A stretch of 64,000 nt of DNA from Hydrurus foetidus. Taxonomy: Eukaryota. The stretch is from assembly GCA_900617105.1 (NCBI GenBank), contig UYFQ01000001.1, forward strand, positions 4,898,001-4,962,000. Direction: 5' to 3'. The position numbers and the translations under genes are program-made. Of this stretch, positions 1,715 through 43,952 are shown in pieces (the stretch's first letter is position 1; each line of letters starts with the position of its first letter). The notes beneath the pieces are model-generated. The model was not told where the DNA came from. It saw nothing but the letters and a program-made list of their open reading frames with translations, and searched no databases.

Positions 1715-2551
1715 TTGAGCGTAAAATATCACTTGCAAACAAAGACGCTAGGCCCACGGGCAGCGCAGCTCTTCACTGAGCTGAATGAACTGCACCGGTC
1801 TACGTTCACGCTGGCGGATGTCGGCTCGATCACCGGCTTGACGGCTGCTGCTGCCCGCAATCTCGTGCACAAGGCTCAGCAGCGAGGCTTGGTGACGCGA
1901 CTGAAGCCCGGTTTGTACAACCTCGTCCCCTTCGAACTCGGCCGGGCCACTGAGCACATCGACAGCCCGTACCTGATCGCGCGTGAACTCGCCGGTGCCG
2001 CGCCCTACTTCCTGTCGCACGGCACCGCGCTTGAACTGCACCGCATGGTGACGCAGCCGAACTTCACCGTGTATGTGTCATGTACGCGGCGCGTGCGTCC
2101 GCAGACGGTCGGTGGCTATGACTTCCGGTTTGTCCACATCACTGCGGAACAAGAATTCGGAGTCATGAAGCACTGGATCGACAAAGAGCGCTTCGTGATG
2201 ATCAGCGACATGGAGCGCACGATCATCGACGGGCTTCGACACCCGGCATTTGTCGGTGGCATTACCGAAGTCGCCAAGGGCTTATGGATGAAGCGGGACG
2301 TACTGAAAGTCGAACGGCTGGTGGACTACGCACAACGCCTCGGCGTCGGCGCCATCGTGCGCCGCCTCGGCTACCTGCTGGAACACTATGGCCTCGCCGA
2401 TGCGTCGGCGATGGAACAATTGCTCGGCATGCTGACGGCAACGTACCAGCGCCTTGATCCACTACTCCCCCCCGAAGGGGCATTCCTCTCACGTTGGCGG
2501 CTCCAGCTCAACGTGACTCCTGAAGAACTCGATACCGTAAGGCTTGGCTAA
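1715..2551 (+). CDS. abiEi: Type IV toxin-antitoxin antitoxin, AbiEi family
   Basis: N-terminal wHTH (LVTRLKPGLY), YFLSHGTALELH, SDMERTIID, RRLGYLLE; stop overlaps the start of abiEii; TTG start uncertain. Confidence 0.88.
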   Translation: MSVKYHLQTKTLGPRAAQLFTELNELHRSTFTLADVGSITGLTAAAARNLVHKAQQRGLVTRLKPGLYNLVPFELGRATEHIDSPYLIARELAGAAPYFLSHGTALELHRMVTQPNFTVYVSCTRRVRPQTVGGYDFRFVHITAEQEFGVMKHWIDKERFVMISDMERTIIDGLRHPAFVGGITEVAKGLWMKRDVLKVERLVDYAQRLGVGAIVRRLGYLLEHYGLADASAMEQLLGMLTATYQRLDPLLPPEGAFLSRWRLQLNVTPEELDTVRLG

Positions 2552-3393
2552 TGATTCCACAACGCAATATCTCCCTGATCTCGAACACGCTGATGAGCGC
2601 CGGCGGGCGGCGCATTCCCGAGGCCGTTATCGAACGCGATTACGTGCTGGCTTGGTTCCTGACCGGTCTGGCCGGTCATCCGCTGCGCGAGGTACTGGCA
2701 TTCAAAGGTGGCACGGCCCTGCGACGTTGCTGGTTTGAGGACTATCGGTTTTCGGAAGACTTGGACTTCACGCTGACCCGTCCGATCACCCTCGAAGATA
2801 TTCTGGCAGGGTTAGCCGAAATCTTTGCGGCGGTTGAGGCCGCGTGCGGCTTGCGGATCGCATTCGACCGCGAAGACCGCCACAGCCACCAGAACAGCCA
2901 CACGTTTTATCTGCGCTACCAGGGGCCACTGCCCGCTGCAAACGACGTGAAGGTTGATATCACGATCACCGAAGTCCTGTGCTTCCCGCTGCAAGATCGC
3001 CCGATTCATCGCATCTACGATAGCTTTGACGATTTACCCGAAGGGCCAACCTTGAAGGTCTATGCCATCAAGGAAATCGTGGTTGAAAAGCTGCTGGCAT
3101 TGAGCGACCGGGCGCGCAATGAACCGCGCGACTTATACGACCTCTGGTATCTATTCGGTTCTACGGACTTGCGCGTAGCGGAAATACGCGTCGAACTCGA
3201 TGCCAAGTTGGCGCTGCGGCAGCGCGTCGTCGCAGGCATGGAGCAGGCAATCGCCGCCAAGGAAGATCGTCTGCGGCGACTCTGGACTGCCCGCCTCGCG
3301 CACCAGATGAACCAACTGCCGCCGTTCGATGATGTCTTTCGGGAAGTGCTGCGCGCGGTTCGCGCTGCCGACTTGCCGAAGGCGGGTGGGTGA
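2551..3393 (+). CDS. abiEii: Nucleotidyltransferase toxin, AbiEii/DUF1814 family
   Basis: ERDYVL, FKGGTALRR, RFSEDLDF, EKLLAL, RDLYDL motifs. Confidence 0.93.
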   Translation: MIPQRNISLISNTLMSAGGRRIPEAVIERDYVLAWFLTGLAGHPLREVLAFKGGTALRRCWFEDYRFSEDLDFTLTRPITLEDILAGLAEIFAAVEAACGLRIAFDREDRHSHQNSHTFYLRYQGPLPAANDVKVDITITEVLCFPLQDRPIHRIYDSFDDLPEGPTLKVYAIKEIVVEKLLALSDRARNEPRDLYDLWYLFGSTDLRVAEIRVELDAKLALRQRVVAGMEQAIAAKEDRLRRLWTARLAHQMNQLPPFDDVFREVLRAVRAADLPKAGG

Positions 3394-3581: not shown

Positions 3582-4376
3582 TCAATCACTTTTTGCTGCC
3601 GGCTTTGAGGCACGCTTCCGTGGAGCCGCAGAAGGCAGGGACGACAGGCATTCGAACAAGCGCTCTGCATACACAAACCCCATGCGGCGCACGGCTTCCT
3701 TGTCGAAATAGAAGGCCCATGCGACAAACAACGCGAGAGAAATGAGGAGCGTCAAACCGGCAGCAAGACCGGGGTCCACGAGGTTGACTGGTGCAAAGTG
3801 TGGCGGAATGACTTGCAAGGCCTTCGCGATCAGTAGCCCGTAGACGACGCCGAAGATACATGCGAGCATCCCGACCGGCTTCATCGCAAGCATGTTGCGA
3901 TGAAAACCATAGGCGATGTTCTCCTTGAGCAAGAGCTGTTTGTCGCCACGCGTGAGTTCGCGAATCCGCCTGGTAGCTCCAATATAAATATCGTCAGCCT
4001 TGGCCGGGTCTGCAATCTCCTCCTGCGCAGTCGGCATGACGATGCCCAACTTGGCCACAATAACAGCGTGATAACGCTGCTTGCTGATACTGTCCAGGAA
4101 CGTATCGCGGTGGCGCAACGCAATGGTGGTCGGCATTCCACCCCATTCTTTCACCAACGTTTCTTCCAACTTTTTGCCTCGGCCACGCGCCACGCTGGCC
4201 AACGCATAGATGGCACCACACCCCCCAAGCAAACCAATAACGCCAGTGAGTACGGGATGCTTCGCGCCGTAGACGCACAATAGTGGCACAAGCAACGGCA
4301 GCGCGACCAGCAGACCAGGAATCACCCGTGCTTTTCGTTCGTACGGGTCCTTGATGAGTTCGAGAATGGCTGTCAT
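3582..4376 (-). CDS. Uncharacterised membrane protein, about 4 TM helices, downstream of the WYL gene
   Basis: Two hydrophobic hairpins flanking a soluble domain (WGGMPTT..LR, ENIAYGFHRN); starts 6 nt after the WYL stop. Confidence 0.8.
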   Translation of the reverse strand: MTAILELIKDPYERKARVIPGLLVALPLLVPLLCVYGAKHPVLTGVIGLLGGCGAIYALASVARGRGKKLEETLVKEWGGMPTTIALRHRDTFLDSISKQRYHAVIVAKLGIVMPTAQEEIADPAKADDIYIGATRRIRELTRGDKQLLLKENIAYGFHRNMLAMKPVGMLACIFGVVYGLLIAKALQVIPPHFAPVNLVDPGLAAGLTLLISLALFVAWAFYFDKEAVRRMGFVYAERLFECLSSLPSAAPRKRASKPAAKSD

Positions 4377-4382
4377 GGTGGA

Positions 4383-5285
4383 TTAGGTTTGGGCCGTCAA
4401 AGCATCGATGTATGGCTGAATTTCGGCGCGGTTTTTCAGAGTGATCTGCTGTGCAAGAGGGTCTGGAGCCTCGTTGGTGTGTAGGCCGAGGCGCCTCAGC
4501 GTGTAGTACAGAAAAGCCTGGCGACACTGAAGTAGTACCTGCCCCTCTTCCATGCCGTAGTCCAATTCCAGGACCCGCTTCTTAGCAGGCGGCAAATCTG
4601 GATGCGGCGCAAGTACCAGTGTCAGCACCGTCTGCCAGTGCGAGTCCATACTTGGATCTGCATCACTTAACTCAAATCCCGCTATATTGAGGATGCGAGC
4701 GAGCACAAAATCGCTGAAGCGCTGACGCTTGTGACAGTAGGCCCGCACATGCCAACGAAAGCCGTCATTGCCTAGTGCATGCGGCGATAGCAGGCGTTCG
4801 GACTCATCCAAGGAAGTCATCGACTGGTAACTGACGCGGACGGCCAGCTTTTCCCGTATCGCTTTGACCAGCGACTCTACCGTCTGCTCGTTGATCGTGC
4901 GCCATGGCGACGGTGCCCAGTCAATCTCGGGCGGCGATCCGATGAAGCTGGTAGCTGACTCCATGATGCCCGTCTTCGTCGCAAGTAACTCCGACAAATA
5001 GCGCCGCGCCGCGCTACTCTGGTAGAGCGCACGGAAGTCTTGTGTTGCGACATAGGTTTTCGAGCTTTTATCATAGACCAAGTTTGTCGGCGCCAGCTCG
5101 GTGTACTTGGCTATGTCGAGAGAGGCTTGTGGAATCGACAGACCAAAATATTCAGTCAGATCCATTCGGTTAATGCGCCTCTCCCAGCGCAGACGAAAGT
5201 CGATGAACTGGAGCCGACGTTCTAAGCCCCAGGTCGTTCCTTTGGGAACAATGAGGTCAAGGTCGGAAGTGGGTTTCTCTTGCAT
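4383..5285 (-). CDS. WYL-domain transcriptional regulator, CapW/BrxR-like
   Basis: wHTH RLQFIDFRLRWERRINRMDL..QASLDIAKY; WYL domain YQSMTS..LSPHAL..RWHVRAYC..FSDFVLARI; start taken at ATG 5285 because the longer ORF overlaps the divergent gene. Confidence 0.9.
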   Translation of the reverse strand: MQEKPTSDLDLIVPKGTTWGLERRLQFIDFRLRWERRINRMDLTEYFGLSIPQASLDIAKYTELAPTNLVYDKSSKTYVATQDFRALYQSSAARRYLSELLATKTGIMESATSFIGSPPEIDWAPSPWRTINEQTVESLVKAIREKLAVRVSYQSMTSLDESERLLSPHALGNDGFRWHVRAYCHKRQRFSDFVLARILNIAGFELSDADPSMDSHWQTVLTLVLAPHPDLPPAKKRVLELDYGMEEGQVLLQCRQAFLYYTLRRLGLHTNEAPDPLAQQITLKNRAEIQPYIDALTAQT

Positions 5286-5325
5286 GAGTTTATGGATATA
5301 AAAAGTAGACTGATCTAAAAAATAA

Positions 5326-5344
5326 GCGTATATTAAATATACGC
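5326..5344. promoter_or_regulatory. Perfect palindrome in the divergent promoter; putative WYL-regulator operator
   Basis: GCGTATATT-A-AATATACGC, directly followed by -10-like GATAAT (5345-5350), in a 91-bp AT-rich gap. Confidence 0.75.
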
Positions 5345-5376
5345 GATAATTCTTTGGCCGTCCACCGGAAATACTT

Positions 5377-6570
5377 ATGCCTACCACCCTTACCTTCTTC
5401 CCTGTCGATAACGGCGACATGACCCTCATCAAATTCGGTGACACCGATGCCACCACATTGCTGATCGATGTAAACATTCGACAGGACGCTGATGATCCTG
5501 ACGGCGAGGCGCGCGATGTAGCCAAGGACCTGCGAGATCGCCTGAAAAAAGATACGAATGGCCGTCCCTATGTGGACGCTTTCCTATTGAGCCATCCGGA
5601 CCAAGACCACTGTCGAGGTCTGACGCAGCACTTTCATCTTGGGCCACTCGGCGAGTACCCAGATGACAACAAGGACTACAAGGACAAAAAGATCGTGATT
5701 CGTGAGGTCTGGTCTTCACCCATTGTCTTTCGCCGCGCGAGCAAAACGCACACGTTGGGTGCCGACGCTACCGCGTTTAGTTCGGAGGCCCGGCGGCGCG
5801 TCAAGATGAACCGTGACAAGAGCTTCGCGGTGGGCGATGGCGACCGTATTCTGATCATGGGCGAAGACATCGACGGCAAGACCGATGACCTGAGCCCTAT
5901 CTTGAAGAAAGTGGATGAAAGTTTTTCAACGATCAACGGTAAGCAGTCCGCATTCTTCTCGGCCTACCTCTTGGCCCCGCTGGATGCGCAAGACGATGAA
6001 GAAGAGGAAGAGTGTCTCGTCAAAAATCAATCTAGCGTGATTATGAATATCACACTTGCCGCCGATGCGCAGACCCCCGACGGCGCGAAATTCCTGACAG
6101 GCGGCGATGCCGAAGTATTCATTTGGAATCGCCAGTGGGCACGCCACAAGGACGAACCAGAGGTGCTTGAGTACGATCTCATGCAGGCGCCGCACCATTG
6201 CTCCTGGCATTCGCTTTCCTATGACAGTTGGTCCAAACTTGGCGAGAAAGTTCAGATCGACGCGGATGCTCGAAGTGCGCTATCGCAAACCCGAAATGGA
6301 GCGATCGTGGTGGCAAGTTGCAAACCGATTGCCGACGACGATAGCGATCCGCCGTGTACACGTGCGAAGCGCGAGTATGTGGCGATCGTGAACGACGCGA
6401 AAGGCGCGTTTTACTGCACGGGCGAATACCCTAACGCCAAGGCGGTGGAGCCGCTCGTTTTCACCGTGACCTCCCAGGGTGTTCAGCCTCCTTCCAAAAA
6501 AGAAACCGGGTCGAAGGCTGCCGCTGTAATCACTTCGGCGCGCACGCCAATGCCGCACGGAACGCGATGA
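5377..6570 (+). CDS. Metallo-beta-lactamase-fold hydrolase (ComEC-like nuclease fold) with C-terminal PHG-TR tail
   Basis: FFPVDNGD, LSHPDQDHCRG, NQSSVI, GGDAE, APHHCSW motifs; ATGA overlap with the next gene. Confidence 0.88.
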   Translation: MPTTLTFFPVDNGDMTLIKFGDTDATTLLIDVNIRQDADDPDGEARDVAKDLRDRLKKDTNGRPYVDAFLLSHPDQDHCRGLTQHFHLGPLGEYPDDNKDYKDKKIVIREVWSSPIVFRRASKTHTLGADATAFSSEARRRVKMNRDKSFAVGDGDRILIMGEDIDGKTDDLSPILKKVDESFSTINGKQSAFFSAYLLAPLDAQDDEEEEECLVKNQSSVIMNITLAADAQTPDGAKFLTGGDAEVFIWNRQWARHKDEPEVLEYDLMQAPHHCSWHSLSYDSWSKLGEKVQIDADARSALSQTRNGAIVVASCKPIADDDSDPPCTRAKREYVAIVNDAKGAFYCTGEYPNAKAVEPLVFTVTSQGVQPPSKKETGSKAAAVITSARTPMPHGTR

Positions 6571-8822
6571 CAGGTGCCGTTGCCGACGCTATCCATCAAC
6601 TAAATCGGCACCGGGGACTCGCCCGAGTCAGTGAGCCGTGCTCGTCGGGCACGGCCACGGTGATCGAAGTTGACGTAGAAGTCGAATTGCCGAGCAGATG
6701 CCGCCAGGACGGCGTATCCGCCACGGGCGTTCGTTCCATCGAGACCTGTTCGCTATTTTTCGACAATGACTGGCCCCTCTCGGCACCGCGCGTCTTCCTG
6801 CGCAAGGATTTTCCGCTCAACCTGCCGCACATCAACCCTCATCGGGCTGGGCAGCTTGTTTCGCCGTGCCTGTTTGAGGGATCACTGGACGAGTTGCTGC
6901 ATCGGTTTGGTCTGGACGCCATCGTCGATCAATTGATCAATTGGCTGCACCAGGCAGCGGCTGGTACGCTGATCGATCTGGAGCAGGGATGGGAGCCTAC
7001 GCGCCGCGACAGTTGCCCATCAAACGTTGTATTCAGCGCGGAACGTGTCGTAGCCTCAGCGCCTACCGACGGCTCCATCTTGTTAGTCAACGCGGGCTAC
7101 ATAACAATGGACGGTGGCTTGTACGCGATCCTCAACACCGAGCTAACCGCACAGATCGATCCCGTCTTCGATCAAGTGGTCCATGATGATCAGTTGGGAA
7201 AATGGGGTCGCGGTCACGCGTCAGCTTTCATTTGTCGTGCACCAGTAGTGCGGGGCCAGCCTCACATAGTCGGACACTATCAACCGGAGACAGTCGTTGA
7301 TATCAACACGCTTCTTGAGCGGACGGCCGAACTGGGTATCAACCGGACCTCACTGGCGCAGGGTCTGGATAGCTATTACAGCCGTTCCATTTTGGATATG
7401 CAGCAAGATCCACGGACATGGACACATGGCTTGTATGCGATCGTGGTCCTTGTTGTGCAGCGACCAGTGTCGCTTGTCGGCTCACCCGGCAGGAGCACCG
7501 AGGTGCTGCCATATGTTGTTCGCTATGAATACTCCGCACAAACGCCCTTCGAACATAAGGCGACGGTACATCCTGCTTTTCACGCGCATGCGCTTTCGCC
7601 CCAGCTATTGGCCCGAACATCCGGCCTGGCATCCGCCGACACTTCGAAGCCGCTGGTGATACTCGGCTGCGGAAGCCTCGGTTCGAAGATCGCGTTACAC
7701 CTCGGACGTGCTGGGTTCGGCGCGATGACGTTTGTCGACAACGAATCTATGTCACCTCACAACGCGGCACGACACGCACTTGTCGAGCCTATTTCGGTCC
7801 TAGCGCCCCCATGCAAGGTGACACTGATGAAGACAGCGTTTGAGGCCTTGTCGCATGTCCAGATACGCGCCTTCGATGTGGATGCGGTTGCTGTCTTTGC
7901 CGATCCTGTTCAGTTCAGCAGAGCAGTTCCCCAGGATGGCGCGCTGATCGTAGATGCGACGGCATCGCTCAAGGTACTTGCATCAGAAACGTTATCGGTT
8001 GCAATGAACGAATCCGCCGCGCGCTTGGCGCGCGTGGCGCTGTATGGCCAGGGACGCTGTGCCGTGGTTCTGCTGGAGGGATGTAGCCGCTCAGGCCGTG
8101 TCGATGACCTGACCGCCTTCCTGTTCGAACACTGCCGACACGAGATTGCGCTTCGGGCGGGCGTAGCTGGGGACGGTTCCGACCCCACACGCGTTTTTGT
8201 CGGGGACAACTGCCGTTCGCTGACGGCGCCAATGTCCGACGCCACCGTTTCGCGCGCGGCAGCGATGGTGGGCCTGCAACTGGAACGTTGGCTGGTGGAC
8301 GGCCTTCCGGTGGAGGCCAGGCTTTGTGTCGGTGTCGCCGACGCTTCGGGCGTTGGAATGTCTTGGATCAGTACGGCACTCGGTCCCACTACCGTGCTGG
8401 ACGTGGTGGACGACGGAGGCTGGAAGATTCGTGTATTGCATCCAGTGGTTCAGGCCATCCACGCTGATGCCATCCACTGGAGTCCGAAGGAAACCGGAGG
8501 CGCCTTACTTGGTCGAATCTCTCACGAGAATCGCACCATCACCATTGCTGGCATTGTCAACGCGCCGCCGGACAGCATCAGGGAGCCTGCGCGTTTCGTT
8601 CTCGGCACAGTTGGTTTGGTCCAGGGTTTGCGCGAGGCGCATGGAAACTCTGTTGGCTATCTCGCCTTCATCGGAACCTGGCACAGCCACCCACAAGGCG
8701 GGCCTCATTCGGGCATCGACCGCGAGACGTTGCGCAACATCGCAGAGAACGCCGGCGGCCTGCCGGCGGTATCGCTGGTATGGACGCCCACGGGATTCAC
8801 CTGCGCCGTAGACCGGTGGTAA
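6567..8822 (+). CDS. E2-E1(ThiF)-JAB fusion protein (Cap2/Cap3-like ubiquitin-transferase and isopeptidase)
   Basis: E2: P..APRV.LR.DFP..LPHINP..PCLF; E1: LGCGSLGS, D..M.PHNAARH, DATAS, GDNCRSLT.PM; JAB: ETGGALLG, GTWHSHP, S..D. Confidence 0.9.
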   Translation: MTGAVADAIHQLNRHRGLARVSEPCSSGTATVIEVDVEVELPSRCRQDGVSATGVRSIETCSLFFDNDWPLSAPRVFLRKDFPLNLPHINPHRAGQLVSPCLFEGSLDELLHRFGLDAIVDQLINWLHQAAAGTLIDLEQGWEPTRRDSCPSNVVFSAERVVASAPTDGSILLVNAGYITMDGGLYAILNTELTAQIDPVFDQVVHDDQLGKWGRGHASAFICRAPVVRGQPHIVGHYQPETVVDINTLLERTAELGINRTSLAQGLDSYYSRSILDMQQDPRTWTHGLYAIVVLVVQRPVSLVGSPGRSTEVLPYVVRYEYSAQTPFEHKATVHPAFHAHALSPQLLARTSGLASADTSKPLVILGCGSLGSKIALHLGRAGFGAMTFVDNESMSPHNAARHALVEPISVLAPPCKVTLMKTAFEALSHVQIRAFDVDAVAVFADPVQFSRAVPQDGALIVDATASLKVLASETLSVAMNESAARLARVALYGQGRCAVVLLEGCSRSGRVDDLTAFLFEHCRHEIALRAGVAGDGSDPTRVFVGDNCRSLTAPMSDATVSRAAAMVGLQLERWLVDGLPVEARLCVGVADASGVGMSWISTALGPTTVLDVVDDGGWKIRVLHPVVQAIHADAIHWSPKETGGALLGRISHENRTITIAGIVNAPPDSIREPARFVLGTVGLVQGLREAHGNSVGYLAFIGTWHSHPQGGPHSGIDRETLRNIAENAGGLPAVSLVWTPTGFTCAVDRW

Positions 8823-8888
8823 CGAAGAGCGGGATAGCCAACACTTCGCCGCACCTGCTCAAAAACCAAGTTTAAAGAAGGAGGAGCT

Positions 8889-9746
8889 ATGCCTGGTCAG
8901 ATGGTTCTGCGAATCTGGGATGTCGCCCACGGCGCGTGCGCCATGCTGACCCACCACCATGACGGTCGCGATGGCCGCATCGCGATGATTGATTCGGGAA
9001 GCACGGTTGGCTGGAATCCCAGCACCTGCATTCGCAACGGTTTGGGGCGCTCAACGCTGGACTACTTGTTCATCACGAATGCTGACCAGGATCACATGGA
9101 CGACTTGCAAGGGTTGTGGGAAGAGAATATCGCGGTGACAACACTGTTCCGCAACCCCAGCTACACCGGCGAAGACATGAGACGTCTCAAGCGGCAGAGC
9201 GGGCCGCTCACCAACGATGCGCAGCGGTACACGTCTGCCTGCGAGGTCTACAACCAGCCCGTGACCGAACCATTCAACGCCTACATGGGCGGCATCACGG
9301 CGACCACCTTTTGGAACAACTACCCTACGTTCCAGAGCACGAACGATCTCAGCCTGGTGATCTTCATTCAGTACGCAGGTGTGAAGATACTATTTCCCGG
9401 CGACTTAGAGAAGCCTGGCTGGAGGGCATTGCTGCAGCGTCCAGATTTTTGCGCCGAGCTGCACAACCTTGACTTCCTCGTGGCATCTCATCACGGGCGC
9501 GAGAACGGTTTCTGTCCTGAACTATTCAACTATTGCCGCCCCGATGCTGTGATCATTTCAGATAAGCCCATTGAACATGAGACTCAACAGACGGTGCCAG
9601 ACTACCGCGCGGTGATGGGGCGCGGGGTATCTGTCAGAACGACCAACAAGAGGAGACACGTGCTCACGACGCGGCGCGACGGCTGGATACAGATCACAGT
9701 TTTCGACAATGGTTGGTATGCGTTCGATACGGAAAAGCGAGGGTAG
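8889..9746 (+). CDS. Second MBL-fold (ComEC/Rec2-like) hydrolase
   Basis: Strong RBS GAGGAG; WDVAHG, IDSG, TNADQDH, NDLSLV, FPGDLE, ASHHG, TTRRDGWI motifs. Confidence 0.85.
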   Translation: MPGQMVLRIWDVAHGACAMLTHHHDGRDGRIAMIDSGSTVGWNPSTCIRNGLGRSTLDYLFITNADQDHMDDLQGLWEENIAVTTLFRNPSYTGEDMRRLKRQSGPLTNDAQRYTSACEVYNQPVTEPFNAYMGGITATTFWNNYPTFQSTNDLSLVIFIQYAGVKILFPGDLEKPGWRALLQRPDFCAELHNLDFLVASHHGRENGFCPELFNYCRPDAVIISDKPIEHETQQTVPDYRAVMGRGVSVRTTNKRRHVLTTRRDGWIQITVFDNGWYAFDTEKRG

Positions 9747-10639: not shown

Positions 10640-10824
10640 GCTGCGGCCTTGACGTCCGGTAAAGGCTGCGCGCTGCGCTTGCCTCCAGGGGTCGGCTGAC
10701 GCCCACCCCGCCGCGCAGGCTTGGCGCCCCACAGGACCGCCGAACAGGCTGCGCCTGATCGGCCAGCACACAACGTCGATTGCGCGCCACGCGCTTTGCC
10801 CACTTCCAGTCAGGCGTGCTTGCT

Positions 10825-11160
10825 GCACGCAGGGGCGCTCGCCGCGCGGCGTTGGTTTCAGCGCATCCCCTGGCCCATTGGCCGCTGTTCGTCTTTCCCC
10901 AAGTTCATCGCTTTCTCCCGCGACCTTAGCCTGCGGTGCCTGGCCGTCAAGGCGCGCAGGGCCGAGTCCTCGCTGCGCTGTGGGCCGCACCAACCCTGCG
11001 CTTCTTCCTTGACGGCCAATCCCTCGCAGACCCGGTTTTTCGCGGGCGATGAACTCAGGAAAGACGGCGGCAAACAGGGACCGACCCAGGTCTCTGCGCC
11101 GAACCAACCAAAGCCACAACGGGCTCCGAATCTTGGAATCCGGTCAGCTTTGAAACCACA
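10825..11160. repeat. 336-bp direct repeat, copy 1; long nested hairpin leader of DUF932
   Basis: Aligns without gaps to 12488-12823 (offset 1663) with few mismatches; internal inverted arms. Confidence 0.92.
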
Positions 11161-11183
11161 GCTTCAATCACAGGAGAAAGACC

Positions 11184-12011: not shown

Positions 12012-12487
12012 CCGGCTGAATCAACGAGGGGGCGCAATGCCCCCTCGACATTGGAGGCACACGGGGCAACGGCGGACGGCCAGGCCGCCGCGCGCCCATC
12101 CGTTCAGTCTGGGCGCGCGGCGGCGGCGGTCGCTACGCGACCACTCGATGGCTGTAGGTATTCGCCATGGTTGGCATGGGGAACCAGCCGATAGGTGCCA
12201 GATGCTTCGCATTGGGTAGTTCGGCAATCCTGCCTGAATTATCTTTGCGTCTCCCGGCATAGCCGGGCCGCGCTGTCGTGCGTGGCATCGAGCCGCCATA
12301 GCGTCTCGCCCCTCTCGGGCTTTCATCGTTCCCTCCCTGCGGTCGGCTGACGCCTGCGCACTGCGTTTGCGCTCCAGGGGATCGGCTGGACAGCCCATCC
12401 CCGCCGCACTCTGTTTGGCGCCCCTGCAATGCCGCCGAACAGGTGGCACCTGATCGGCCAACAGCCATCCATCCAGGCGTGCCGCTG

Positions 12488-12823
12488 GCACGCAGGGGCG
12501 CTCGCCGCGCGGCGTTGGTTTCAGCGCATCCCCTGGCCCATCGACCGCTGTTCGTCTTTCCCCAAGTTCATCGCTTTTTCCCGCGACCGTAGCCCGCAGT
12601 GCCTGGCCGTCAAGGCGCGCAGGGCCGAGTCCTCGCTGCGCTGTGGGCCGCACCAACCCTGCGCTTCTTCCTTGACAGCCAGTCCCTTGCTGGCCCGGTT
12701 TTTCGCGGGCGATGAACTCAGGAAAGACGGCGGCAAACAGGGACCGGCCCAGGTCTCTGCGCCGAACCAACCAAAGCCACAACGGGCTCCGAATCTTGGA
12801 ATCCGGTCAGCTTTGAAACCACA
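12488..12823. repeat. 336-bp direct repeat, copy 2; hairpin leader upstream of the ParB-like gene
   Basis: Near-identical to 10825-11160. Confidence 0.92.
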
Positions 12824-12921
12824 GGAGAGCGCGCATGCAGATACCGACACCGTGAATCGATAACGAGTTTTTTCAACCTTTTTTTGTTTTCAACTTCCCG
12901 CAAGGGATAGGAGCTATCACC

Positions 12922-15889: not shown

Positions 15890-16664
15890 TCATCGCCCTC
15901 GACGCCCCGCCCATCTGGCGGGGCGCTTTTGCGTTCACCATCAGCGGCCCGCGCATCGCAGCGCGGGCCGACTAATTTGATGCACCGAATCGCTGATTGG
16001 CGGAGTACGGAATTGCGTGGAACCGCACTTCCGTAATCGTGCTTGAGCACAAAGCCGCTTCTACGGATTGTCGGTTCTGTAGTTTTACGGAGATGCGTAA
16101 AACCGGTTCTACGTTTTCATGAGTTTTGGCAACGACACATTTCCGGTTCCACGAATCCTTGTGCACCAGCATTGAAGTCCATCGTGCGTCCCCGGCGATG
16201 CCGGGCCACGCTGTCGTGCTGCGCATCAAGCCGCCGATGGCGTCTCGCCCCTTCGGCTTCCATTGCTGACGCCTCCGCGCTGGATGGCGCTGCGCGCTAC
16301 GCTTGCCCTCCAGGGATCGGCTTGACGCCCATCCCCGCCGCGCTGTGCTTGGCACCCCTCACAATGCGCCGAACAGGCCGCGCCTGATCGGCCTGCAAGA
16401 CCTCCTGTACTCCTGCGCCATCGAACCTGGTCTGATGCCGACGCTGTTCATCGCAGCGTTGCGGCGCTTCATGACGGCGCCACTCTTGTCGTGCATGGCC
16501 GCATCACCGACCGGACAGGCAGCGCAGCTTGGCGCACGCCGCACGCCCGTCAACCCCCGGCCCGCGCCAGCTTCGCCCGTGTTGGGGGTGTGACGGCCGC
16601 GCTATGCGCGTGCGCCAGACACGCAGCGCTCCGATCGGGAGCGTCCATTCAAGGAGTTGCAATC

Positions 16665-24454: not shown

Positions 24455-26530
24455 CTACTCATTGGCTGAGATTTTCAGAAAAGTTACCTCAAACGCCTTG
24501 CATTGGCGGAACTGTTGCAACCGGTTAGCAAAGGCAAAGGCATCATTCATATCGTAGTGCTGGAAAACATCAATCCCGCGATCCAACAGGACTTTCCAGC
24601 CATGGTCTGTGACGATATGGCGCGCATGGATGGTGCCTGACGTGTCATATGCCCAAGTGAACTCGATGCCAACCGCCGATGACGACTCCGTGATCTTCTC
24701 TAAGTACTCCCGCTGCTGCACACCTTTGAATTCGTCCTCACGGGTAATTAAGTGAAACTTAATGTCGTCTTCCTTGTTCTTGACCTTGGCGACGGTTTCC
24801 AGCAACTCCATGAGATTACGCACTTGGTGAAACAGTCGAATGTATGCGTCTGTTAGCGTGATCGTTTTGGCACCCCGTAGATAAGGGCCAAACAGGCGCT
24901 CGAATGAAAGACCACGCTGGTTTTCCTGAAAGGTTAGGTGCTGTTCGGTCAGTTCTTCAGCGACGACTTTGGCCAGACGGGACGTCGTGGGTTCCAGCGC
25001 TGATGCATCAACTTGCGGAGAACCTTCATCATTGACGGTAGGTTCTGAGCCATCGCCAACAACACGGTTGTAGTGGCCCGGATATTCGCTTTCTTCCAGC
25101 GTCGTAACCGCGTATGACTTACCGGCTTTGTCTTCGTAGACGAACCGAACTTTTGAATAGGTCGCGTCGATCCGCATGAGCTGATCTTTAACTCGCTTGC
25201 GGCCCTCGATAGCGCAGCGCAAAAGTTCTTCGACCTCTTCTTTTGATGCCTCGCCCTGCGGGTAGATGATCTTCATCAGACCAGAAAAGGTCTTGTTGAT
25301 ACCGTCACGGTCGCGTGTGGAAATGTCGGACGCCAACGTGAAATGCTGCGTGTAGCGGTCCGAAAAGTCATGGTTCCGCAGTGCGCGCAGAATTTCCGCC
25401 AGATAGTCCACGATGAAGCCGTACCCGCTGGAGAACATCTCGCCACGGATGATGTCCATCTCCCAGCCGGGGATGTAGTAATGGATGCGGTCCAGGAAGG
25501 CGGAGTCATGAAATTTCTCGGGCAGCGGATCAAACAAGTCTGTGTGCTTGAGCATATGCGGCACCGTGTGTTCGGTGTTCCCAACAAAGACCATAGACGC
25601 TTCCGCGCCCAATGTCTCCACGCCACGCGAAAACGACTTGTTCGCCATATAGTTCTTCATGATGTCCACCAAGGACTTGTCCACACGCTTCTGCTTGCCT
25701 GCGAACTCATCAAAAGCGACCACATCCCAATATCCGACCAAGCCAATTTTTCCTGTACCGTTATGGACGAACAACTTGGGCACCGTCACTTCACCGCCCG
25801 AGATCAGCATTCCGTGCGGTGAAAACTCTGAGTAGATATGCGACTTGCCGGTACCCTTAGGACCCAGCTCGATCAGGTTGTAGTTGCGCTCGCAAAATGG
25901 AATCAACCGGACAAGCTGACTAAGCTTGTTCCGTTTGCCAAACATTTCCGGGTTAAAGCCTACGCTCTGAATCAGCAAGTCGATCCACTCGTCGGTGGTG
26001 AACTGCTTGCGTGCTGTCAGATAACTATCCATGTCAAAGCTCGACATTTGGATTGGCTTCAGCGACCCCATGATCCACGGACTGGCGGTCTTTTCCTCCG
26101 TGAACGCATATTCCACATCGGCGATGCACCACACGCCACTGACCAAGAGCTTAGGATGTTTCTTGACGGTGGCAGAATCAACCACGACATTTTTCACACC
26201 AAGATTCGCAAACTCGGCTTCATACGCATCGGTCTTGTCATTGAGCGATACGCTCACACGATCGATGACTTTATGGCGGCCTTTTTCTTTGATAGTCGAG
26301 CGGACCAGTCCAGATTCATTGCGGTGAACATAGTGCTTTGCCAAGACGTCCTTCACCGTCTCGATGCCGGTCTGGATCGTGGCTTCGTCGTTGGTGGCGC
26401 AGTATTGGCCCAGCAAGTATTCCAGGACGTATGACGGCACAATCGCGTTGCCCTTGACCGTTTTCACAAGGTCTTTGCGGACCACAAGACCAGGGAAGTG
26501 CTGGTTTATTTTTTGGTCAAGTGTACTCAT
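24455..26530 (-). CDS. brxL: BREX BrxL AAA+ protein with a C-terminal PLD-like (MITD1-C-like) domain
   Basis: VPSYVLEYLLGQYC, ELGPKGTGKSH, VAFDE, DSAFLDRIH; C-terminal DAYIR..HQ..N and IHARHIVTDHGW..LDRGID. Confidence 0.88.
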   Translation of the reverse strand: MSTLDQKINQHFPGLVVRKDLVKTVKGNAIVPSYVLEYLLGQYCATNDEATIQTGIETVKDVLAKHYVHRNESGLVRSTIKEKGRHKVIDRVSVSLNDKTDAYEAEFANLGVKNVVVDSATVKKHPKLLVSGVWCIADVEYAFTEEKTASPWIMGSLKPIQMSSFDMDSYLTARKQFTTDEWIDLLIQSVGFNPEMFGKRNKLSQLVRLIPFCERNYNLIELGPKGTGKSHIYSEFSPHGMLISGGEVTVPKLFVHNGTGKIGLVGYWDVVAFDEFAGKQKRVDKSLVDIMKNYMANKSFSRGVETLGAEASMVFVGNTEHTVPHMLKHTDLFDPLPEKFHDSAFLDRIHYYIPGWEMDIIRGEMFSSGYGFIVDYLAEILRALRNHDFSDRYTQHFTLASDISTRDRDGINKTFSGLMKIIYPQGEASKEEVEELLRCAIEGRKRVKDQLMRIDATYSKVRFVYEDKAGKSYAVTTLEESEYPGHYNRVVGDGSEPTVNDEGSPQVDASALEPTTSRLAKVVAEELTEQHLTFQENQRGLSFERLFGPYLRGAKTITLTDAYIRLFHQVRNLMELLETVAKVKNKEDDIKFHLITREDEFKGVQQREYLEKITESSSAVGIEFTWAYDTSGTIHARHIVTDHGWKVLLDRGIDVFQHYDMNDAFAFANRLQQFRQCKAFEVTFLKISANE

Positions 26531-26543
26531 GGGAGTCTGTCCC

Positions 26544-29042
26544 TCAGAAATCAAAATCACTGGTGAAAGAGCGCCGCACTAAATAACGCAGCGATTTGTA
26601 TTCTTTGTAATGGCTGGTACCTGCCAGCTTTTCGTCAAGCCGTAGCACAACCTCTTGCCCGTTGGCCTCATCCGCTTTGCGGGTCAATACCAAGCGAACA
26701 TGCGACTCGCGGTCGCGCGGGTTCTCTGACGCCAGATCAAACGTCAGTTCGTGGCTATCGGAGATCAAGTCACCCGAATGGGTGTAGATGCCGGCCCGCA
26801 ATGTGCGTGCTTGTATCTTGTCTGTCACGGCCTGCGACTGATACATCACCACAGCGAGCTGACCCGATGTGATCGTCGACGTCGTTCCGCGCAATATGTC
26901 CACGTCAACTACAGACAAATCACTCTGCCGCTTCTTGTTGATCTTAACGACCGGAATCACCAACTCCTGCAAGGTGGCACCCCCATGCACAAAGCGGCTC
27001 CCAGAACCTTGCAAACGCAGGCGGTGGATGGATTTCGGAATTTGCACTTCGATGTCGCCGGTCAAACCCAATTGAACCGACGTGAATGACTTCAGACTGG
27101 TATTCTCTTTCAGACCACGGCCCAGCACAAAGCGTCGATCACGGTAAAGAATCGAATCACCCTCTACATCGCCTGCCAGAAAATCACTTTCTGCCAACGT
27201 GCGGTTCTGGTAAATGAAACCGTGGTCTGCCGTCACCAACAGGTTGCTGGCGTTGGCACTGGTCAGTTTTTTGATCACCCGCAGGAGCTCTTGCAGTGTC
27301 TCTTCGGCGGCATTGAACACGCGCTCTTCGGTGTCTCGCGTATCGCCGGTCTTGTCGATCAGATTGTGATAAATGTAGACTACATCGGTATCGCGCAACA
27401 GGGTGCGCGTGTCTTCCTTACCCATCTCAAGTAAATCTTTGGCCTGAATTGCTTTCCCAATTTTTCCATCGATCTTATTTAGAATTTTGTTCCGATTGTC
27501 CGTTCCACGGGAGCTTTGGCGATCAACTTGTACGCCGCCAGATTCGTCTGCGGTCAGCGTCAGTTCCTTGTTAGGCAACAGTGCTGCCATACCCAATTGG
27601 GTGTAGCTTGGCAGCATGGACAATGCTGGTTCAATGTCGGCATCAAAACGATCCTCTTGGCGGATCAAGGTCAGAAGCTCTTCGCCAACCTCGTAACGGA
27701 ACGCGTCCGAAATGATGACGTAGACCTTGTTGTCCTTTTCAAGAAATTGCTGAACGTAGCGCGTAAAAAAATTACGCTGCAAGGGCACAGGCGGTGCATC
27801 CCAGTGCCGCGCGTCATCCACAAATGCCTGCCAACGGTTGTTCAACTTCAACAGATAGCTGTTGGTGTACAGGTTCTCGATCTGCTCGGCGAGGCTAGCC
27901 ATCAGCGAGGCCTGGCCCGCGCTGCGAATGTGAAAGATGAACTTGCGATAGAGCTGGTCTAACCTAAACCAAGACTGGCTGTAGCGTAAAACGCCATCGG
28001 CCAAGGAATCCATCGCCAGCGTGGATTCATCAAGAGCGCGAATAAACTCTGCCGCCATCTCAAGTGCACCATAAAGATTCGCAAAATTAGCGTGCCAGTG
28101 GCCCTGACGACGCAGGCGAACCCACTGCGCTACATCAGTGGCAGACACCGTGCGTGCGGTCACCTGCTGGACCAAGTCTGAAATGATTTTCTTGTCAATC
28201 AAACGAAAGTAATCCAGCTCCATCAAACTGCGGAAGTCTCGTTTCGCCAGGTCTTGCTCGATGCCCAATGCATCGGCACATTCCGTCGACAAAGTTTCAA
28301 AGCAGGTTTCATATTGGCGGCTGTCTTTCCAGCGCTTCAAAAACACCAAAGCATCGGCAGATAGCTTGACCGTACCCTCCGTGCCCAAGGCATAGCACGA
28401 CTTAAATAACTCCACAACAAAGTCGCGTATGGTTGGCGTTTCAGATATGTAGCCATAGGATCGCTTCATCTGCTCCCACAAAATGCCGTCCAAACTGCAA
28501 CGATGGATCAGTTTCGCTTTATCGTCTTTGTCTTCGGCCAATTCGGCCAACAGAGATTCCAGCACCGAATCAAGGCGCGGCTCCGCACCGGTACATACAG
28601 CAAGCATCTTCAGGCGCAATTCTCCCTGCGTGTCGTCAGGCTTCAGCCATCGCTTCAATGCTTCCTTGCGTTTGCCGGCCTTGAAAAACTCGACATGCGC
28701 CTGCGCTACATTTGCAAACTCAATACCCAGTTCCAACTCAGCCAGCCACAAAGCCACCTGATCGGTACGAAACTCATCATGGGCGAGCTGCACATCCAGC
28801 AGCCAGTTGTCCAAATCGGCCGGCTGTGGTCCCGGCTTGTAAATCAGGAACTTGCTCTCCGGCTCATCACGCAAGATGCGGTGCTTGATGCCAAACTCGT
28901 TGTTGGCAATCTCCAGCTTCTGCACACCGGGCAGTACCAGCGCGTCAAAGTCGGAGCGCAACTCTTCCTTGGTGTCGTACCAGAAGACAATGCGAGTTGC
29001 TTCAAATTTTTTGGCCAGCGCCAGGGTAATGCGGCTTTCCAT
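26544..29042 (-). CDS. pglZ: BREX alkaline-phosphatase-fold protein PglZ
   Basis: RIVFWYD, IISDAFRYEVG, LPSYTQLGMAALLP, TADHGF, FVHGG. Confidence 0.95.
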   Translation of the reverse strand: MESRITLALAKKFEATRIVFWYDTKEELRSDFDALVLPGVQKLEIANNEFGIKHRILRDEPESKFLIYKPGPQPADLDNWLLDVQLAHDEFRTDQVALWLAELELGIEFANVAQAHVEFFKAGKRKEALKRWLKPDDTQGELRLKMLAVCTGAEPRLDSVLESLLAELAEDKDDKAKLIHRCSLDGILWEQMKRSYGYISETPTIRDFVVELFKSCYALGTEGTVKLSADALVFLKRWKDSRQYETCFETLSTECADALGIEQDLAKRDFRSLMELDYFRLIDKKIISDLVQQVTARTVSATDVAQWVRLRRQGHWHANFANLYGALEMAAEFIRALDESTLAMDSLADGVLRYSQSWFRLDQLYRKFIFHIRSAGQASLMASLAEQIENLYTNSYLLKLNNRWQAFVDDARHWDAPPVPLQRNFFTRYVQQFLEKDNKVYVIISDAFRYEVGEELLTLIRQEDRFDADIEPALSMLPSYTQLGMAALLPNKELTLTADESGGVQVDRQSSRGTDNRNKILNKIDGKIGKAIQAKDLLEMGKEDTRTLLRDTDVVYIYHNLIDKTGDTRDTEERVFNAAEETLQELLRVIKKLTSANASNLLVTADHGFIYQNRTLAESDFLAGDVEGDSILYRDRRFVLGRGLKENTSLKSFTSVQLGLTGDIEVQIPKSIHRLRLQGSGSRFVHGGATLQELVIPVVKINKKRQSDLSVVDVDILRGTTSTITSGQLAVVMYQSQAVTDKIQARTLRAGIYTHSGDLISDSHELTFDLASENPRDRESHVRLVLTRKADEANGQEVVLRLDEKLAGTSHYKEYKSLRYLVRRSFTSDFDF

Positions 29043-29044
29043 CT

Positions 29045-32000
29045 TCAATCCTCAGTAGCGTCCAGCCCAACTATCTTTTTCAGCGCCGCACCAAACTTGC
29101 CGTAGTTTGCCTTCACACCGTTATCCAGATCAATCTCTAGCTTCTGGGTTGCCAACGGGTAGAGCACATCACGCTCATAGCCCTCCAGCTCGACGATGTT
29201 CTTTTTCAGGATTTCGATTTCCTTCAGCGCCTTGGTCTTCTCACCGGACGACGCGCTGCCGCTGATGCTCACCTGGTCCAAATGGCTCTTTCGTGCGGCC
29301 AACTTTGTACGGAACTCGCGCAAGTAGTCGTTCAGCACCACGCTCACCGTGTCCGGGCGGTAACGGTGCATATAAATCAAAGCCTTGAAGCTACCTTTAG
29401 GGCTTGAGAACAGCCAGTATATGGGTCGTTTCTTGTAGCGCTTGACGTGGTCGGTGTAAAACTCGTTGAGAAAATAGTCGCGGATCGGTAGCGGCTTGCC
29501 CTTCTTGCCCAACGCGGTTTCGATGAAGCTCAGGTTTTCTTCGTAATGCTCGTCGCCGAAAGACACACGCAGGAACTCGCGGAAGCGGTTGGTTATATCG
29601 TCGGTGAACCAGTCACCGTCGAGCAGCGGAATCACGTTGTTCTCGTCAGGCGCAAAGCGCGGTTGCGGCACTTGGAGCAGATAGTCCGCCAGCGTTTCGC
29701 TCTGGTTGGCGAGGATAAGCCCCGGCTTGTCGAGGCTGTAGCGGCCAAACATGCAGCCAACGGCGTAGGATATGAGCTCGCACATCGTGTCGGCACGCAG
29801 CGTATCTTCCAACGTTTGCTCACTTTTTTCACCACCATAGCGGTAGTGCGGATTGCAGGTCACGGTGATTTCAGTGAGCGGAACTTCCGGAGTAAGTTCG
29901 TCTTGTAAGCCGTAGGCTTCGATAAATATGCGATTGTTTTCTTCCTCCAGACGTTGCACGTTTTGTGTTGTCGCAAGCCATTGTGCGCGGAGTTTAGTCC
30001 AAGTAGATTGAAGACAAGATTGGCCGTGCGTATCTTGCAGTAACGAACTCATAGAAAAGCCCCAAGACGTCTCAAACGAATTCCAATCGTCTTTGGACAA
30101 CTGCGCAAGTGCAGACGCATTTTGACTGATGGAGTCTCGCCCACTAAATTCAAAATTGGAAGGGAGTTTGGCTATGTCACCGGGTTGATAATTTAGCGTT
30201 GAGCTAATGAAGTTAATCAATGGAATAATGATGTTACTGTTCAAATATGCAGTAATTAACGGATGCAGTCGTTGGTCATGCGCAAATAGAGAAGATCCAG
30301 CATTGTCGAATAGCGAACATGACGAAAATCGCGCTGATGTTTTTCCCGAGGTTAATGCGTTCCAAGTCACACCGTCTTTAAAGATGTAATCTAGGTTGTA
30401 GTTGTGCGAGCGCACTTTTCCAGTTGTCGGGTCGGAGAAGTTACGTATCTCCTCTCCGTCATTTTTCCAATTCACCAAATACTCTAGGTTCCCGTACCAC
30501 TTTCTGAAATCGCCGCCTTTTTGATATGGAAACCACTTGAGGCCGGAGCCAATAGCCTTTTGCCTAGAGTCAACAGTCCTTCCGAAATAATCATTCGAAA
30601 CCTCGTACCAAAACCGGAGAAATTTTCCATTGTCAGCAGTGGCCATTCCCAATCTGGTGTCAGCTACTTCGCCAATTTTCTTGGCACCAAATAGTTGAAT
30701 CATTGCGTGACTAGCCCAATAGGCAATCGGGCTACCGGGTATTTTCTGAAAGTCGGCGTTAGCAGCACGGTGATGCCAGCCACATTCGCGGTTGCGAACA
30801 GCTTCGCGCAACAATCGATCTTTAGCAGCCTCTGATGAACCATCGATCAAACGCAAAAAATCACCTTTAAACTCACGATGCGGAGCGTTTTCGAGGACGA
30901 ACGCCGTGGTGGACACCACCTCGCCACCGATACTGTCAAATGCACGGGGCCCAAGATGCGCCATTGAACAGAACGTTTTGTTGTTGAGCAGATTAGTACG
31001 CAATTTTTCGAAGGATGACAGGAACATCCAGCTCTGCATTGTGATCATGCCGACAGCGCCCTGCTTAACGGTTAGATCGAGATTGCGCTCAATGAACATG
31101 GCGAACAGGTCGGCCTTACTGTCTGGGTACTTTTCCTTGCCCCATGCTTGGAGCCGTCCGTTCATTCCCCCACTACCCATATAAGGCGGATTCGCCACCA
31201 CTACCTGATAGCGCTCGCTTAGATATTCCGCTTGATCGAGTACACGCAGCATATCCTTATGGACGTGTTCCAGCAGCAACTGGCTGCCGATGCCTTTTTC
31301 GGCGAACGCGCGGCGCAGTTCGGCATAGTCCATCATCACCGGGCGAATCAGCGAGCCAAAGTTGTCGGCCTCCTCGAACTCAGTAAGCAGCGTGCGCAGC
31401 TTGGCAGTGAATAGGTCGCGCCCAACGACTGCCACATAGGCATCCAGGTCATGCGGATCGATCTTGGTCCGCCTCAACACGCAGATATTCGGCTGGATGC
31501 GCTTGTTGAGGAAACGCCGCTGCTTGCCGCGTGCCTTCATAGTTAGAGCAAAAGCGGCCAATTCGGCGGCCCGCTCGTCGATCTCGATACCGTAGAGGTT
31601 GTTGGTAAGTATCTTCTCTGGAATCTCAGCCGGATCGGCGCCTTCCTCCTCGTAGATGGCATAGAGCAGGTCGAAGGCGTAAGTGAGCATGTGACCGGAA
31701 CCACAGGCCGGGTCACACAGCTTGATGTCCTCGGGCTTGGCGATGTGCAAGAAATCGACAATAGACTCCTGTGGCGCGATGTAATAGTCCATCTGCTCGG
31801 CCAACCGTGAGTTCGGTCGGTTGAGCAGCCACAAGCGACCGAGGGAGTTTTCAACCAGGTAGCGCACGATCCAATGCGGGGTGAACAGTTGGGTGGCTGC
31901 GGGGATGTTTTCCGGGGTGATCTTCTTGTTCTTCTTCAGTCCTTCGAAAACTGCGTCCTTTTTCTCGGAGATGTAGAACTGATAAAGCCAGCCGATGACC

Positions 32001-32584
32001 TCTACGTCCCGGCAGGCATCCGGCGTCATGGCCTCACGGGTGTAGGCGAGGATGGAGTTGCCGGAGAGCAGATCGTCCGGCATCAGCAGTTCGGTAAAGT
32101 CAGCGATCCGCTCGAAGAGGTAGGGCATAGCACGGTGGAAGTCGTTACACGCGGCCACAACTAGAAGACAATAGGCTTCTTGCTGCGGGTCACGGCTAGT
32201 TGCACTTTCGTTCAGCAGTGCAATGACCTGCTGGCGTACCTCGGACGGTACCATTTCTTCGTCGAGGTGACCCATCTTTGCCTCGGCCAGAATCTCGGGC
32301 TGGAACTGCCCTTCTACGGGCGACACCACGCCAATCCGGCTGTACCTGTTCACGTCCATGAAGCGTAGCGCGCAAAAGCGGTTGAACCATGTGTAGGCTA
32401 CTTTCTCGATCACCTGCTCTTCACTAGTATCTCTGATCTGTTTTTCCAGATCTTGCACCGCGTTGCCATTCTCTCGCCGCGCGGCACTGTCGCTGCCCAA
32501 TACCATGCCCATCTTGGCTGCGACTTGTTCCCTCAGTGTGCGGCGGGCATATTGGGCGAAGCGCTTTAGCTTAGTGGTTTCCAT
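29045..32584 (-). CDS. pglX: BREX-1 adenine-specific DNA methyltransferase PglX (BrxX)
   Basis: AYTWFNR, IPAATQLFTP, DPACGSGH (SAM-binding), NPPY (catalytic), YKKRPIYW. Confidence 0.95.
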   Translation of the reverse strand: METTKLKRFAQYARRTLREQVAAKMGMVLGSDSAARRENGNAVQDLEKQIRDTSEEQVIEKVAYTWFNRFCALRFMDVNRYSRIGVVSPVEGQFQPEILAEAKMGHLDEEMVPSEVRQQVIALLNESATSRDPQQEAYCLLVVAACNDFHRAMPYLFERIADFTELLMPDDLLSGNSILAYTREAMTPDACRDVEVIGWLYQFYISEKKDAVFEGLKKNKKITPENIPAATQLFTPHWIVRYLVENSLGRLWLLNRPNSRLAEQMDYYIAPQESIVDFLHIAKPEDIKLCDPACGSGHMLTYAFDLLYAIYEEEGADPAEIPEKILTNNLYGIEIDERAAELAAFALTMKARGKQRRFLNKRIQPNICVLRRTKIDPHDLDAYVAVVGRDLFTAKLRTLLTEFEEADNFGSLIRPVMMDYAELRRAFAEKGIGSQLLLEHVHKDMLRVLDQAEYLSERYQVVVANPPYMGSGGMNGRLQAWGKEKYPDSKADLFAMFIERNLDLTVKQGAVGMITMQSWMFLSSFEKLRTNLLNNKTFCSMAHLGPRAFDSIGGEVVSTTAFVLENAPHREFKGDFLRLIDGSSEAAKDRLLREAVRNRECGWHHRAANADFQKIPGSPIAYWASHAMIQLFGAKKIGEVADTRLGMATADNGKFLRFWYEVSNDYFGRTVDSRQKAIGSGLKWFPYQKGGDFRKWYGNLEYLVNWKNDGEEIRNFSDPTTGKVRSHNYNLDYIFKDGVTWNALTSGKTSARFSSCSLFDNAGSSLFAHDQRLHPLITAYLNSNIIIPLINFISSTLNYQPGDIAKLPSNFEFSGRDSISQNASALAQLSKDDWNSFETSWGFSMSSLLQDTHGQSCLQSTWTKLRAQWLATTQNVQRLEEENNRIFIEAYGLQDELTPEVPLTEITVTCNPHYRYGGEKSEQTLEDTLRADTMCELISYAVGCMFGRYSLDKPGLILANQSETLADYLLQVPQPRFAPDENNVIPLLDGDWFTDDITNRFREFLRVSFGDEHYEENLSFIETALGKKGKPLPIRDYFLNEFYTDHVKRYKKRPIYWLFSSPKGSFKALIYMHRYRPDTVSVVLNDYLREFRTKLAARKSHLDQVSISGSASSGEKTKALKEIEILKKNIVELEGYERDVLYPLATQKLEIDLDNGVKANYGKFGAALKKIVGLDATED

Positions 32585-32589
32585 TGTTC

Positions 32590-34226: not shown

Positions 34227-34235
34227 GTTGACTCC

Positions 34236-37769: not shown

Positions 37770-37784
37770 CAAGCTGCTCTCGCT

Positions 37785-43290: not shown

Positions 43291-43664
43291 CACCTTTGCA
43301 CATTTCAAACACTTCAAACACTTCCGTAAATCCGCTTCTGCACAACGCCCGCCTTCAGGTCGGTATGCAGATCATCATCATGGTGGCGCTGTTGCTGTGC
43401 GTGGCGCTGCCTGCGCACGCAGCGGGCTCGAACATGCCGTGGGAGGCACCTCTGCAATCGGTGCTGGAGTCCATTCAGGGACCGGTGGCCCGCATCATCG
43501 CGGTGATCATCATCATTACCACCGGCCTGACGCTGGCGTTCGGCGACACCAGCGGTGGCTTTCGCAAGCTAGTGCAGATCGTCTTCGGCCTATCGATCGC
43601 GTTCGCCGCATCCTCGTTCTTCCTGACCTTCTTCAGCTTTGCCGGTGGAGCGGTGATCGCATGA
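43287..43664 (+). CDS. trbC: Pilin precursor TrbC (VirB2)
   Basis: AHAAGSNMPWE.PL..SIQGPVA, two hydrophobic helices, GGAV terminus. Confidence 0.92.
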   Translation: MTPLHISNTSNTSVNPLLHNARLQVGMQIIIMVALLLCVALPAHAAGSNMPWEAPLQSVLESIQGPVARIIAVIIIITTGLTLAFGDTSGGFRKLVQIVFGLSIAFAASSFFLTFFSFAGGAVIA

Positions 43665-43933: not shown

Positions 43934-43952
43934 GACCCACGGAGAACACGCC

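Follow-up and report, generated by a model that had tools for sequence, protein, structure and literature searches.

The 64,000-nucleotide stretch of DNA analyzed here, hereafter referred to as the window, carries at positions 3582-9746 a five-gene locus that is, as judged from its sequence, an intact copy of the named anti-phage system 6A-MBL. In the reading that we favor, and consider probable, the metallo-β-lactamase MBL1 serves as the equivalent of ubiquitin, a CapW repressor controls the locus, and a mobile module composed of a membrane protein (4TM) and a second metallo-β-lactamase (MBL2) operates at the inner membrane. The features of the window are as follows.

1715-3393, plus strand: AbiEi/AbiEii type IV toxin-antitoxin pair (Pfam, PADLOC), converging on the 4TM gene
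3582-4376, minus strand: 4TM gene, an uninterrupted ORF of 264 residues
4383-5285, minus strand: WYL gene (CapW/BrxR-type wHTH-WYL repressor, by sequence), 300 residues
5326-5344: inverted repeat, perfect 9-bp, putative CapW operator
5377-6570, plus strand: MBL1 (6A-MBL enzyme) gene, 397 residues
6567-8822, plus strand: E2-E1-JAB fusion gene (Cap2-Cap3-like), 751 residues
8889-9746, plus strand: MBL2 gene, 285 residues
10107-24444 and 39804-51751: radC, DUF932, parB, RlxS-like relaxase, TraG, and Trb genes, the backbone of an ICE
24458-39007, minus strand: BREX-1 system, with BrxC, PglX, PglZ, and BrxL over cut-off
52482-55738, minus strand: integrase beside guaA

Each of the five ORFs is present, without interruption, on the strand assigned to it in the preliminary description, and the overlap proposed there to couple MBL1 to the fusion can be read as ATGA at 6567-6570. 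The fusion contains the Pfam domains Prok-E2_A (residues 6-163), ThiF (363-445), and Prok-JAB (626-732). It scores 548.3 bits against NCBIfam NF058523 (6A-MBL_cap2_3; cut-off 320), and MBL1 scores 428.7 bits against NF058524 (6A-MBL_enzyme; cut-off 220), so that the earlier assignment to the 6A-MBL type holds. The PADLOC E1-E2 and JAB models likewise match the fusion, the nearest sequence in the PDB being that of Cap2 (7to3, E 7e-20). Across aligned relatives of 18-87% identity, the E2 residues His88 and Cys101 (SPCL), the E1 residue Cys549 (GDNC), and the JAB residues Glu642, His706, His708, Ser715, and Asp718 are each invariant (31/31). The catalytic residues of E1, E2, JAB, and the MBL are all intact in the window copy, and for the three ligase motifs this is what had been claimed. 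The ligase model was over its cut-off in 7/400, 6/401, 10/401, and 9/401 sampled genomes, these samples being overlapping ones that all contain genome G001. Three metatranscriptome runs contained, in contigs only, 6-13% of the sequence words searched for, which gives no evidence of expression.

As had been stated in the preliminary description, a CD-NTase and a free ubiquitin-like (Ubl) gene are missing: no Pfam, PADLOC, or NCBIfam model for the former, and no model for the latter, matched the 9-11 proteins scanned between positions 970 and 14925. There is neither room nor an ORF for a separate Ubl gene between the five genes, a point on which the locus differs from the Bil/Bub ubiquitin-like systems. 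The sole nucleotidyltransferase among the scanned proteins is the separate AbiEii toxin (2551-3393).

In the original description, operon 6a is an E2-E1-JAB triple protein that almost always adjoins a specialized metallo-β-lactamase (Iyer, Burroughs and Aravind 2006, PMC1779556); the system was named in van den Berg et al. 2024. A 2026 review lists 6A-MBL among confirmed anti-phage components, citing van den Berg et al. 2024 (PMC13276650), and a 2025 preprint counts it among jumbo-phage defences (10.1101/2025.09.30.679545). In these two sources, activity is reported for the family and not for the window copy. A full-text search of a literature collection found no mechanistic study of 6A-MBL, and the term "MBL" is absent from the Ledvina preprint. 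The single-chain E2-E1-JAB protein, the adjoining specialized MBL, the scores above both curated cut-offs, and the lack of both cyclase and Ubl are shared with 6A-MBL; whereas two genes make up the operon as defined in 2006 and as covered by the curated models, this copy adds CapW, 4TM, and a second MBL.

How usual these additions are can be seen from a survey of 33 loci that were selected solely for their ligase and drawn from three sources (4 + 5 + 24). The five were hand-picked from 29 full-length plasmid matches, and the 24 were kept from 28 genome regions following the removal of two duplicates and two contig-end fragments. MBL1 adjoins the ligase in 30/33 loci. A 4TM-superfamily gene is found in 26, ten of which are without any second MBL, and a second MBL occurs in 16, all with 4TM. 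The WYL gene is observed in 11/33 and patatin in 3/33, the latter instead of 4TM; four loci contain neither 4TM nor patatin. The accessory slot, which may lie on either side of the core, is occupied by members of three subfamilies of 4TM and three of second MBLs. This distribution suggests that 6A-MBL usually has a third component, a membrane protein, which a definition by two genes leaves out. All five genes occur together in 9/33 loci, of which three nearly duplicate the window locus and two have ligases only 22% and 29% identical, and the layout is thus no rarity.

The preliminary description had suggested that two MBLs with WYL and 4TM might form an uncharacterized variant. This is not borne out: the core is a named and modeled family with reported anti-phage activity, and the association of 4TM, MBL, ubiquitin-like, and WYL genes was described in 2019 for the Csx27 family, according to the reviews PMC7642515 and PMC8209922. 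The 6A-MBL core is already known, and its extended neighborhood had been predicted, according to these reviews. The preliminary description did not recognize 4TM and MBL2 as a module of their own, which can be exchanged.

Three kinds of departure were encountered among the relatives. Loci L022 and L023 have an intact E2-E1-JAB ligase without an adjoining MBL1, the ligase being an orphan or serving another substrate. In L035, L036, L037, L111, and L123 a patatin-like gene follows the 6A-MBL core, replacing or adding to the 4TM module. Finally, in L062 (2598-6056) the MBL1 tail ends in GGGRYA, and after it come E2-E1 and JAB matches that are weak and split. We take this ending to resemble CD-NTase tails, and L062 is possibly a bridge between 6A-MBL and type II CBASS.

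MBL1 and its C-terminal tail

The model of MBL1 (pLDDT 86) is folded to approximately residue 370, and the tail delineated by residues 375-397 is disordered (pLDDT <50). The top structural match is the ComEC nuclease domain (9ic4; Z 23.9, rmsd 3.0, 257 aligned residues), followed by the phosphorylcholine esterase Pce (Z 21.4), with the next row at 16.3; Foldseek agrees with both. On the basis of this modeling, MBL1 is a ComEC/Pce-type metallo-hydrolase. Because the ComEC and Pce matches lie close together, there is room for a substrate other than nucleic acid.

The tail ends in PHG-TR, the glycine being Gly395. A [HAFY]G motif, the residue set of which was derived from MBL1 itself, lies no more than 10 residues from the C-terminus in 29/31 MBL1 proteins and in 2 of 82 control proteins from the same loci (among them 0/7 MBL3, 0/16 4TM, 0/9 c5, 0/12 WYL, and 2/35 ligases). 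In an alignment of 22 MBL1 rows, ten end exactly at the glycine and 12 extend beyond it, the window copy by two residues. The aligned glycine of L035-L037 (3/22 rows) is positioned 13-16 residues before the end, and the column is thus probably misaligned, or atypical, in these three.

A co-fold of ligase residues 1-612 with MBL1 residues 10-395 gave a score of 0.75, as compared to 0.45 for the best of three controls; the mark applied to such scores is reached by 51/78 solved pairs and 2/108 mismatched pairs. Contact agreement between runs was at least 92%, and the partner pLDDT was 84. Note that the Cap2 complex has already been solved (7to3), and likeness to it may therefore raise the score. 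The predicted interface is formed by E2 residues 38-47 and 117-134 and by MBL1 residues 365-377 at the base of the tail. Placement of tail residues 378-395 in the E1 site is absent from the confident contacts of the co-fold, which contained a single E1 copy. The co-fold supports, but does not show, docking of MBL1 on the E2 domain. Given the conserved tail glycine, the invariant catalytic residues, and the co-fold, MBL1 is likely the modifier conjugated by the ligase via its glycine tail, as proposed in the preliminary description.

In type II CBASS, as described in PMC11153139, the tail of the CD-NTase terminates in Ala/Gly and becomes joined to lysine; one known target, in Bacillus, is the membrane-associated PspA, and Cap3 frees the CD-NTase on infection. 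The locus has in common with type II CBASS the E2-E1 architecture, the catalytic Cys pair, the JAB peptidase, and a candidate substrate with a flexible tail ending in a small residue. It differs in that the candidate substrate is an MBL hydrolase, the JAB is fused, the tail would, from its sequence, need trimming, and both a CD-NTase and a nucleotide-sensing effector are lacking.

The CapW-type regulator and the membrane module

The WYL gene product carries the Pfam WYL domain and matches PDB entries 7tb5 (E 8e-76), 7tb6 (CapW, E 1e-74), and 7t8k (BrxR, E 1e-42). In its 300-residue form the protein can be aligned to CapW over the full length; a 380-residue form with a TTG start, which overlaps MBL1, was rejected as not needed. 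By homology, the protein is a CapW/BrxR-type wHTH-WYL repressor. The spacer between its gene and that of MBL1 is 91 bp long, AT-rich, and contains the perfect 9-bp palindrome at 5326-5344. This palindrome is identical in L001-L003 and recognizable in L004, L013, L025, L027, L030, L038, and L040, and hence in 10/11 relatives shown. It covers the -10 box of each of two divergent promoter-like sites, at 5306-5334 (plus strand) and 5364-5336 (minus strand). These promoter calls are weak taken alone, given that five were found versus 3.2 expected. The palindrome is likely the CapW operator. Full-length similarity, divergent placement, and a palindromic operator-like site are thus shared with CapW/BrxR; the window member, unlike those, adjoins 6A-MBL rather than CBASS or BREX, and only one-third of the surveyed loci have a WYL gene. 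According to a preprint (10.1101/2024.11.21.623953), the triggers to which CapW/BrxR respond are infection or DNA damage.

The 4TM protein displays four hydrophobic peaks, which begin at residues 18, 42, 168, and 204, and its model is all-helical and confident (pLDDT 96). No Pfam, NCBIfam, or PADLOC family was over cut-off, the fold search of the model against the PDB gave no match at E≤0.001, and a sequence search gave chance-level matches only. The family search returned 2234 cluster representatives at E≤0.001. A direct Csx27 match was sought and rejected, with 0/128 family members matching PDLC01605 at E≤1. The connection runs instead through a third 4TM subfamily, to which both the window 4TM and c5, another 4TM type, link: three of its five proteins weakly match the Csx27 model (E 8.4e-4, 0.11, and 2.3e-4), and its five-sequence profile aligns to the window 4TM family over 209 columns (94.9%, E 4.5e-8) and to c5 (80%, E 1.4e-5). 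The weak matches of this profile among 9699 ORFs are nearly all 4TM or c5 proteins. Compared directly, the window 4TM and c5 profiles gave 1.3% and E 0.04, which is not significant. The window 4TM is thereby linked to Csx27, albeit indirectly, by a two-step chain of sequence profiles. The same two reviews relate that Makarova et al. 2019 found Csx27-family 4TM proteins together with genes of natural transformation, of the ubiquitin system, and of the WYL type, and predicted them to be ssDNA channels. Four predicted TM helices and the same gene company (ComEC-like, ubiquitin-system, and WYL genes) are features of the locus as well; it differs in being without Cas13b and in that its 4TM subfamily lacks a direct match to the Csx27 model. 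A lysine-rich 4TM tail was considered as a conjugation acceptor and rejected: in c5-type tails, for which lysines were counted, the mean is lower in 15 ligase loci (1.8) than in 11 ligase-free loci (2.55), and the idea is therefore without support.

MBL2, a ComEC-like metallo-hydrolase by its matches, has a hit to PADLOC PDC-M48B (E 4e-57), and its profile matches ComEC and Pce structures (best E 1e-6). The first metal His is replaced by Asn (TNADQDH) in 120/120 close homologues. Among the best 80 of 509 metagenome matches to MBL2, a 4TM gene is the neighbor in 70 loci (67 c5-type and three window-type), and 12 of the 21 loci having 3 kb on both sides are without the 6A-MBL core. Similarly, seven of eight 4TM plasmid loci, picked mostly for their absence from the ligase matches and including Bacillus, Rhodococcus, and Staphylococcus plasmids, have an MBL neighbor and no ligase. 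From these two sets it follows that 4TM with an MBL is a free-standing module. The closest relatives with the window 4TM type (L004, L013, and L038) carry a different, 356-residue second MBL, and window-type MBL2 is normally paired with c5. With both parts usually having other partners, this locus is a small chimera; no c5 remnant was found beside its MBL2. Both alternative second-MBL types also match PDC-M48B models. The window differs from the PADLOC candidate PDC-M48 in that no PDC-M48A match was found among the proteins scanned; one PDC-M48A model gave nothing in five genomes, where the control likewise gave no match anywhere. The main text of the PADLOC preprint does not contain "M48", although its supplements may.

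Proposed mechanism and alternatives

In the favored reading, CapW would repress both divergent promoters at the putative operator until infection or DNA damage. MBL1 would then dock, as modeled, on the E2 domain, and JAB would trim two residues to expose Gly395, as suggested by the 10/22 relatives that end exactly at the aligned glycine. By analogy with Cap2/Cap3, E1 would adenylate MBL1, which would pass from Cys549 to Cys101 to a target lysine, and JAB would reverse the conjugation. The conjugation state may set where or when MBL1, a predicted ComEC-type nuclease or phosphodiesterase, acts on DNA, its presumed substrate. The Csx27-related 4TM would be the usual third component and likely the membrane site, and MBL2 an optional second nuclease, brought in alongside a membrane gene of this kind and probably left unconjugated. 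A more specific version, which we regard as distinctly unlikely, has the ligase fastening the MBL1 nuclease onto the Csx27-like 4TM to give an on-demand, ComEC-like channel-plus-nuclease that destroys entering phage DNA at the inner membrane. Were it true, a conjugation target of 6A-MBL would be known for the first time, the Csx27 family would have a function outside of CRISPR, and there would be a reason for the listing among jumbo-phage defences. As annotation the locus matters little, its family being named and modeled. Its worth lies in being an intact and compact system, carried by a mobile element, in which to study the conjugation target of MBL1, whether maturation requires that the fused JAB trim the tail, and the role of Csx27-like membrane proteins.

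The core and the 4TM+MBL2 pair might be two independent systems under one regulator, the pair merely hitch-hiking with no functional contact. The module does stand alone in the 12/21 and 7/8 loci given above, the curated family consists of two genes, and 4TM types are swapped across the ligase tree (12 changes on a quick tree, shuffled mean 15.2). Nevertheless, 4TM accompanies the core in most surveyed loci, the one slot is taken by any of three distinct 4TM subfamilies, and in the ten loci that lack a second MBL it is MBL1 that looks like the partner of 4TM; we consider hitch-hiking unlikely. That MBL2 is a second conjugation substrate by virtue of its terminal glycine seems very improbable. 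This glycine ends 115/120 close homologues, with variable residues before it, and the family has a conserved TExxG ending whether or not a ligase is present, but the glycine is kept equally in ligase-free (10/12) and ligase-bearing (8/9) well-flanked loci and was thus rejected as a sign of conjugation. MBL2 also lacks a long flexible tail, and the tail motif is missing from the alternative second MBLs (0/7).

A third possibility is CBASS-like signaling, whereby MBL1, primed by conjugation, replaces the cyclase, making or removing a small-molecule signal, with 4TM or patatin as the death effector. Patatin is a CBASS effector, and its occupancy of the slot in the three loci without 4TM, together with its flanking of the core in L111 and L123, fits a signal-effector arrangement. 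Also in its favor, a preprint (10.1101/2024.11.21.623953) classes the CBASS, Pycsar, and MBL pathways together, in that they conjugate "their respective signaling enzymes". Against this, the modeled fold of MBL1 is that of a hydrolase and lies nearest to ComEC, the 4TM family showed no nucleotide-sensor domain on scanning, and several unrelated MBL subfamilies are paired with this same 4TM where there is no ligase. We judge such signaling to be improbable.

The mobile element

The five-gene locus is flanked on one side by the AbiEi/AbiEii pair, which adjoins the 6A-MBL locus in relatives L003 and L019 as well, and on the other by radC, DUF932, and parB. The gene layout of the backbone is that of a Tn4371-like ICE; the locus is cargo of this element, the backbone of which bears three defence systems. 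Ligase copies of 95-99% identity were found in two different families and one unclassified genome, as expected of mobile cargo. No WYL regulator for the BREX-1 system was detected in the scan, and two unassigned ORFs (32593-33150 and 33150-34226) sit between brxC and pglX. The guaA ORF encodes a GMP synthase of 569 residues that the model matches in two stretches, which suggests an internal insertion. The non-coding segments at 10665-11161, 12246-12824, and 16185-16397 are repeated in the ICE backbone, with multiple cross-matches to L001/L002.
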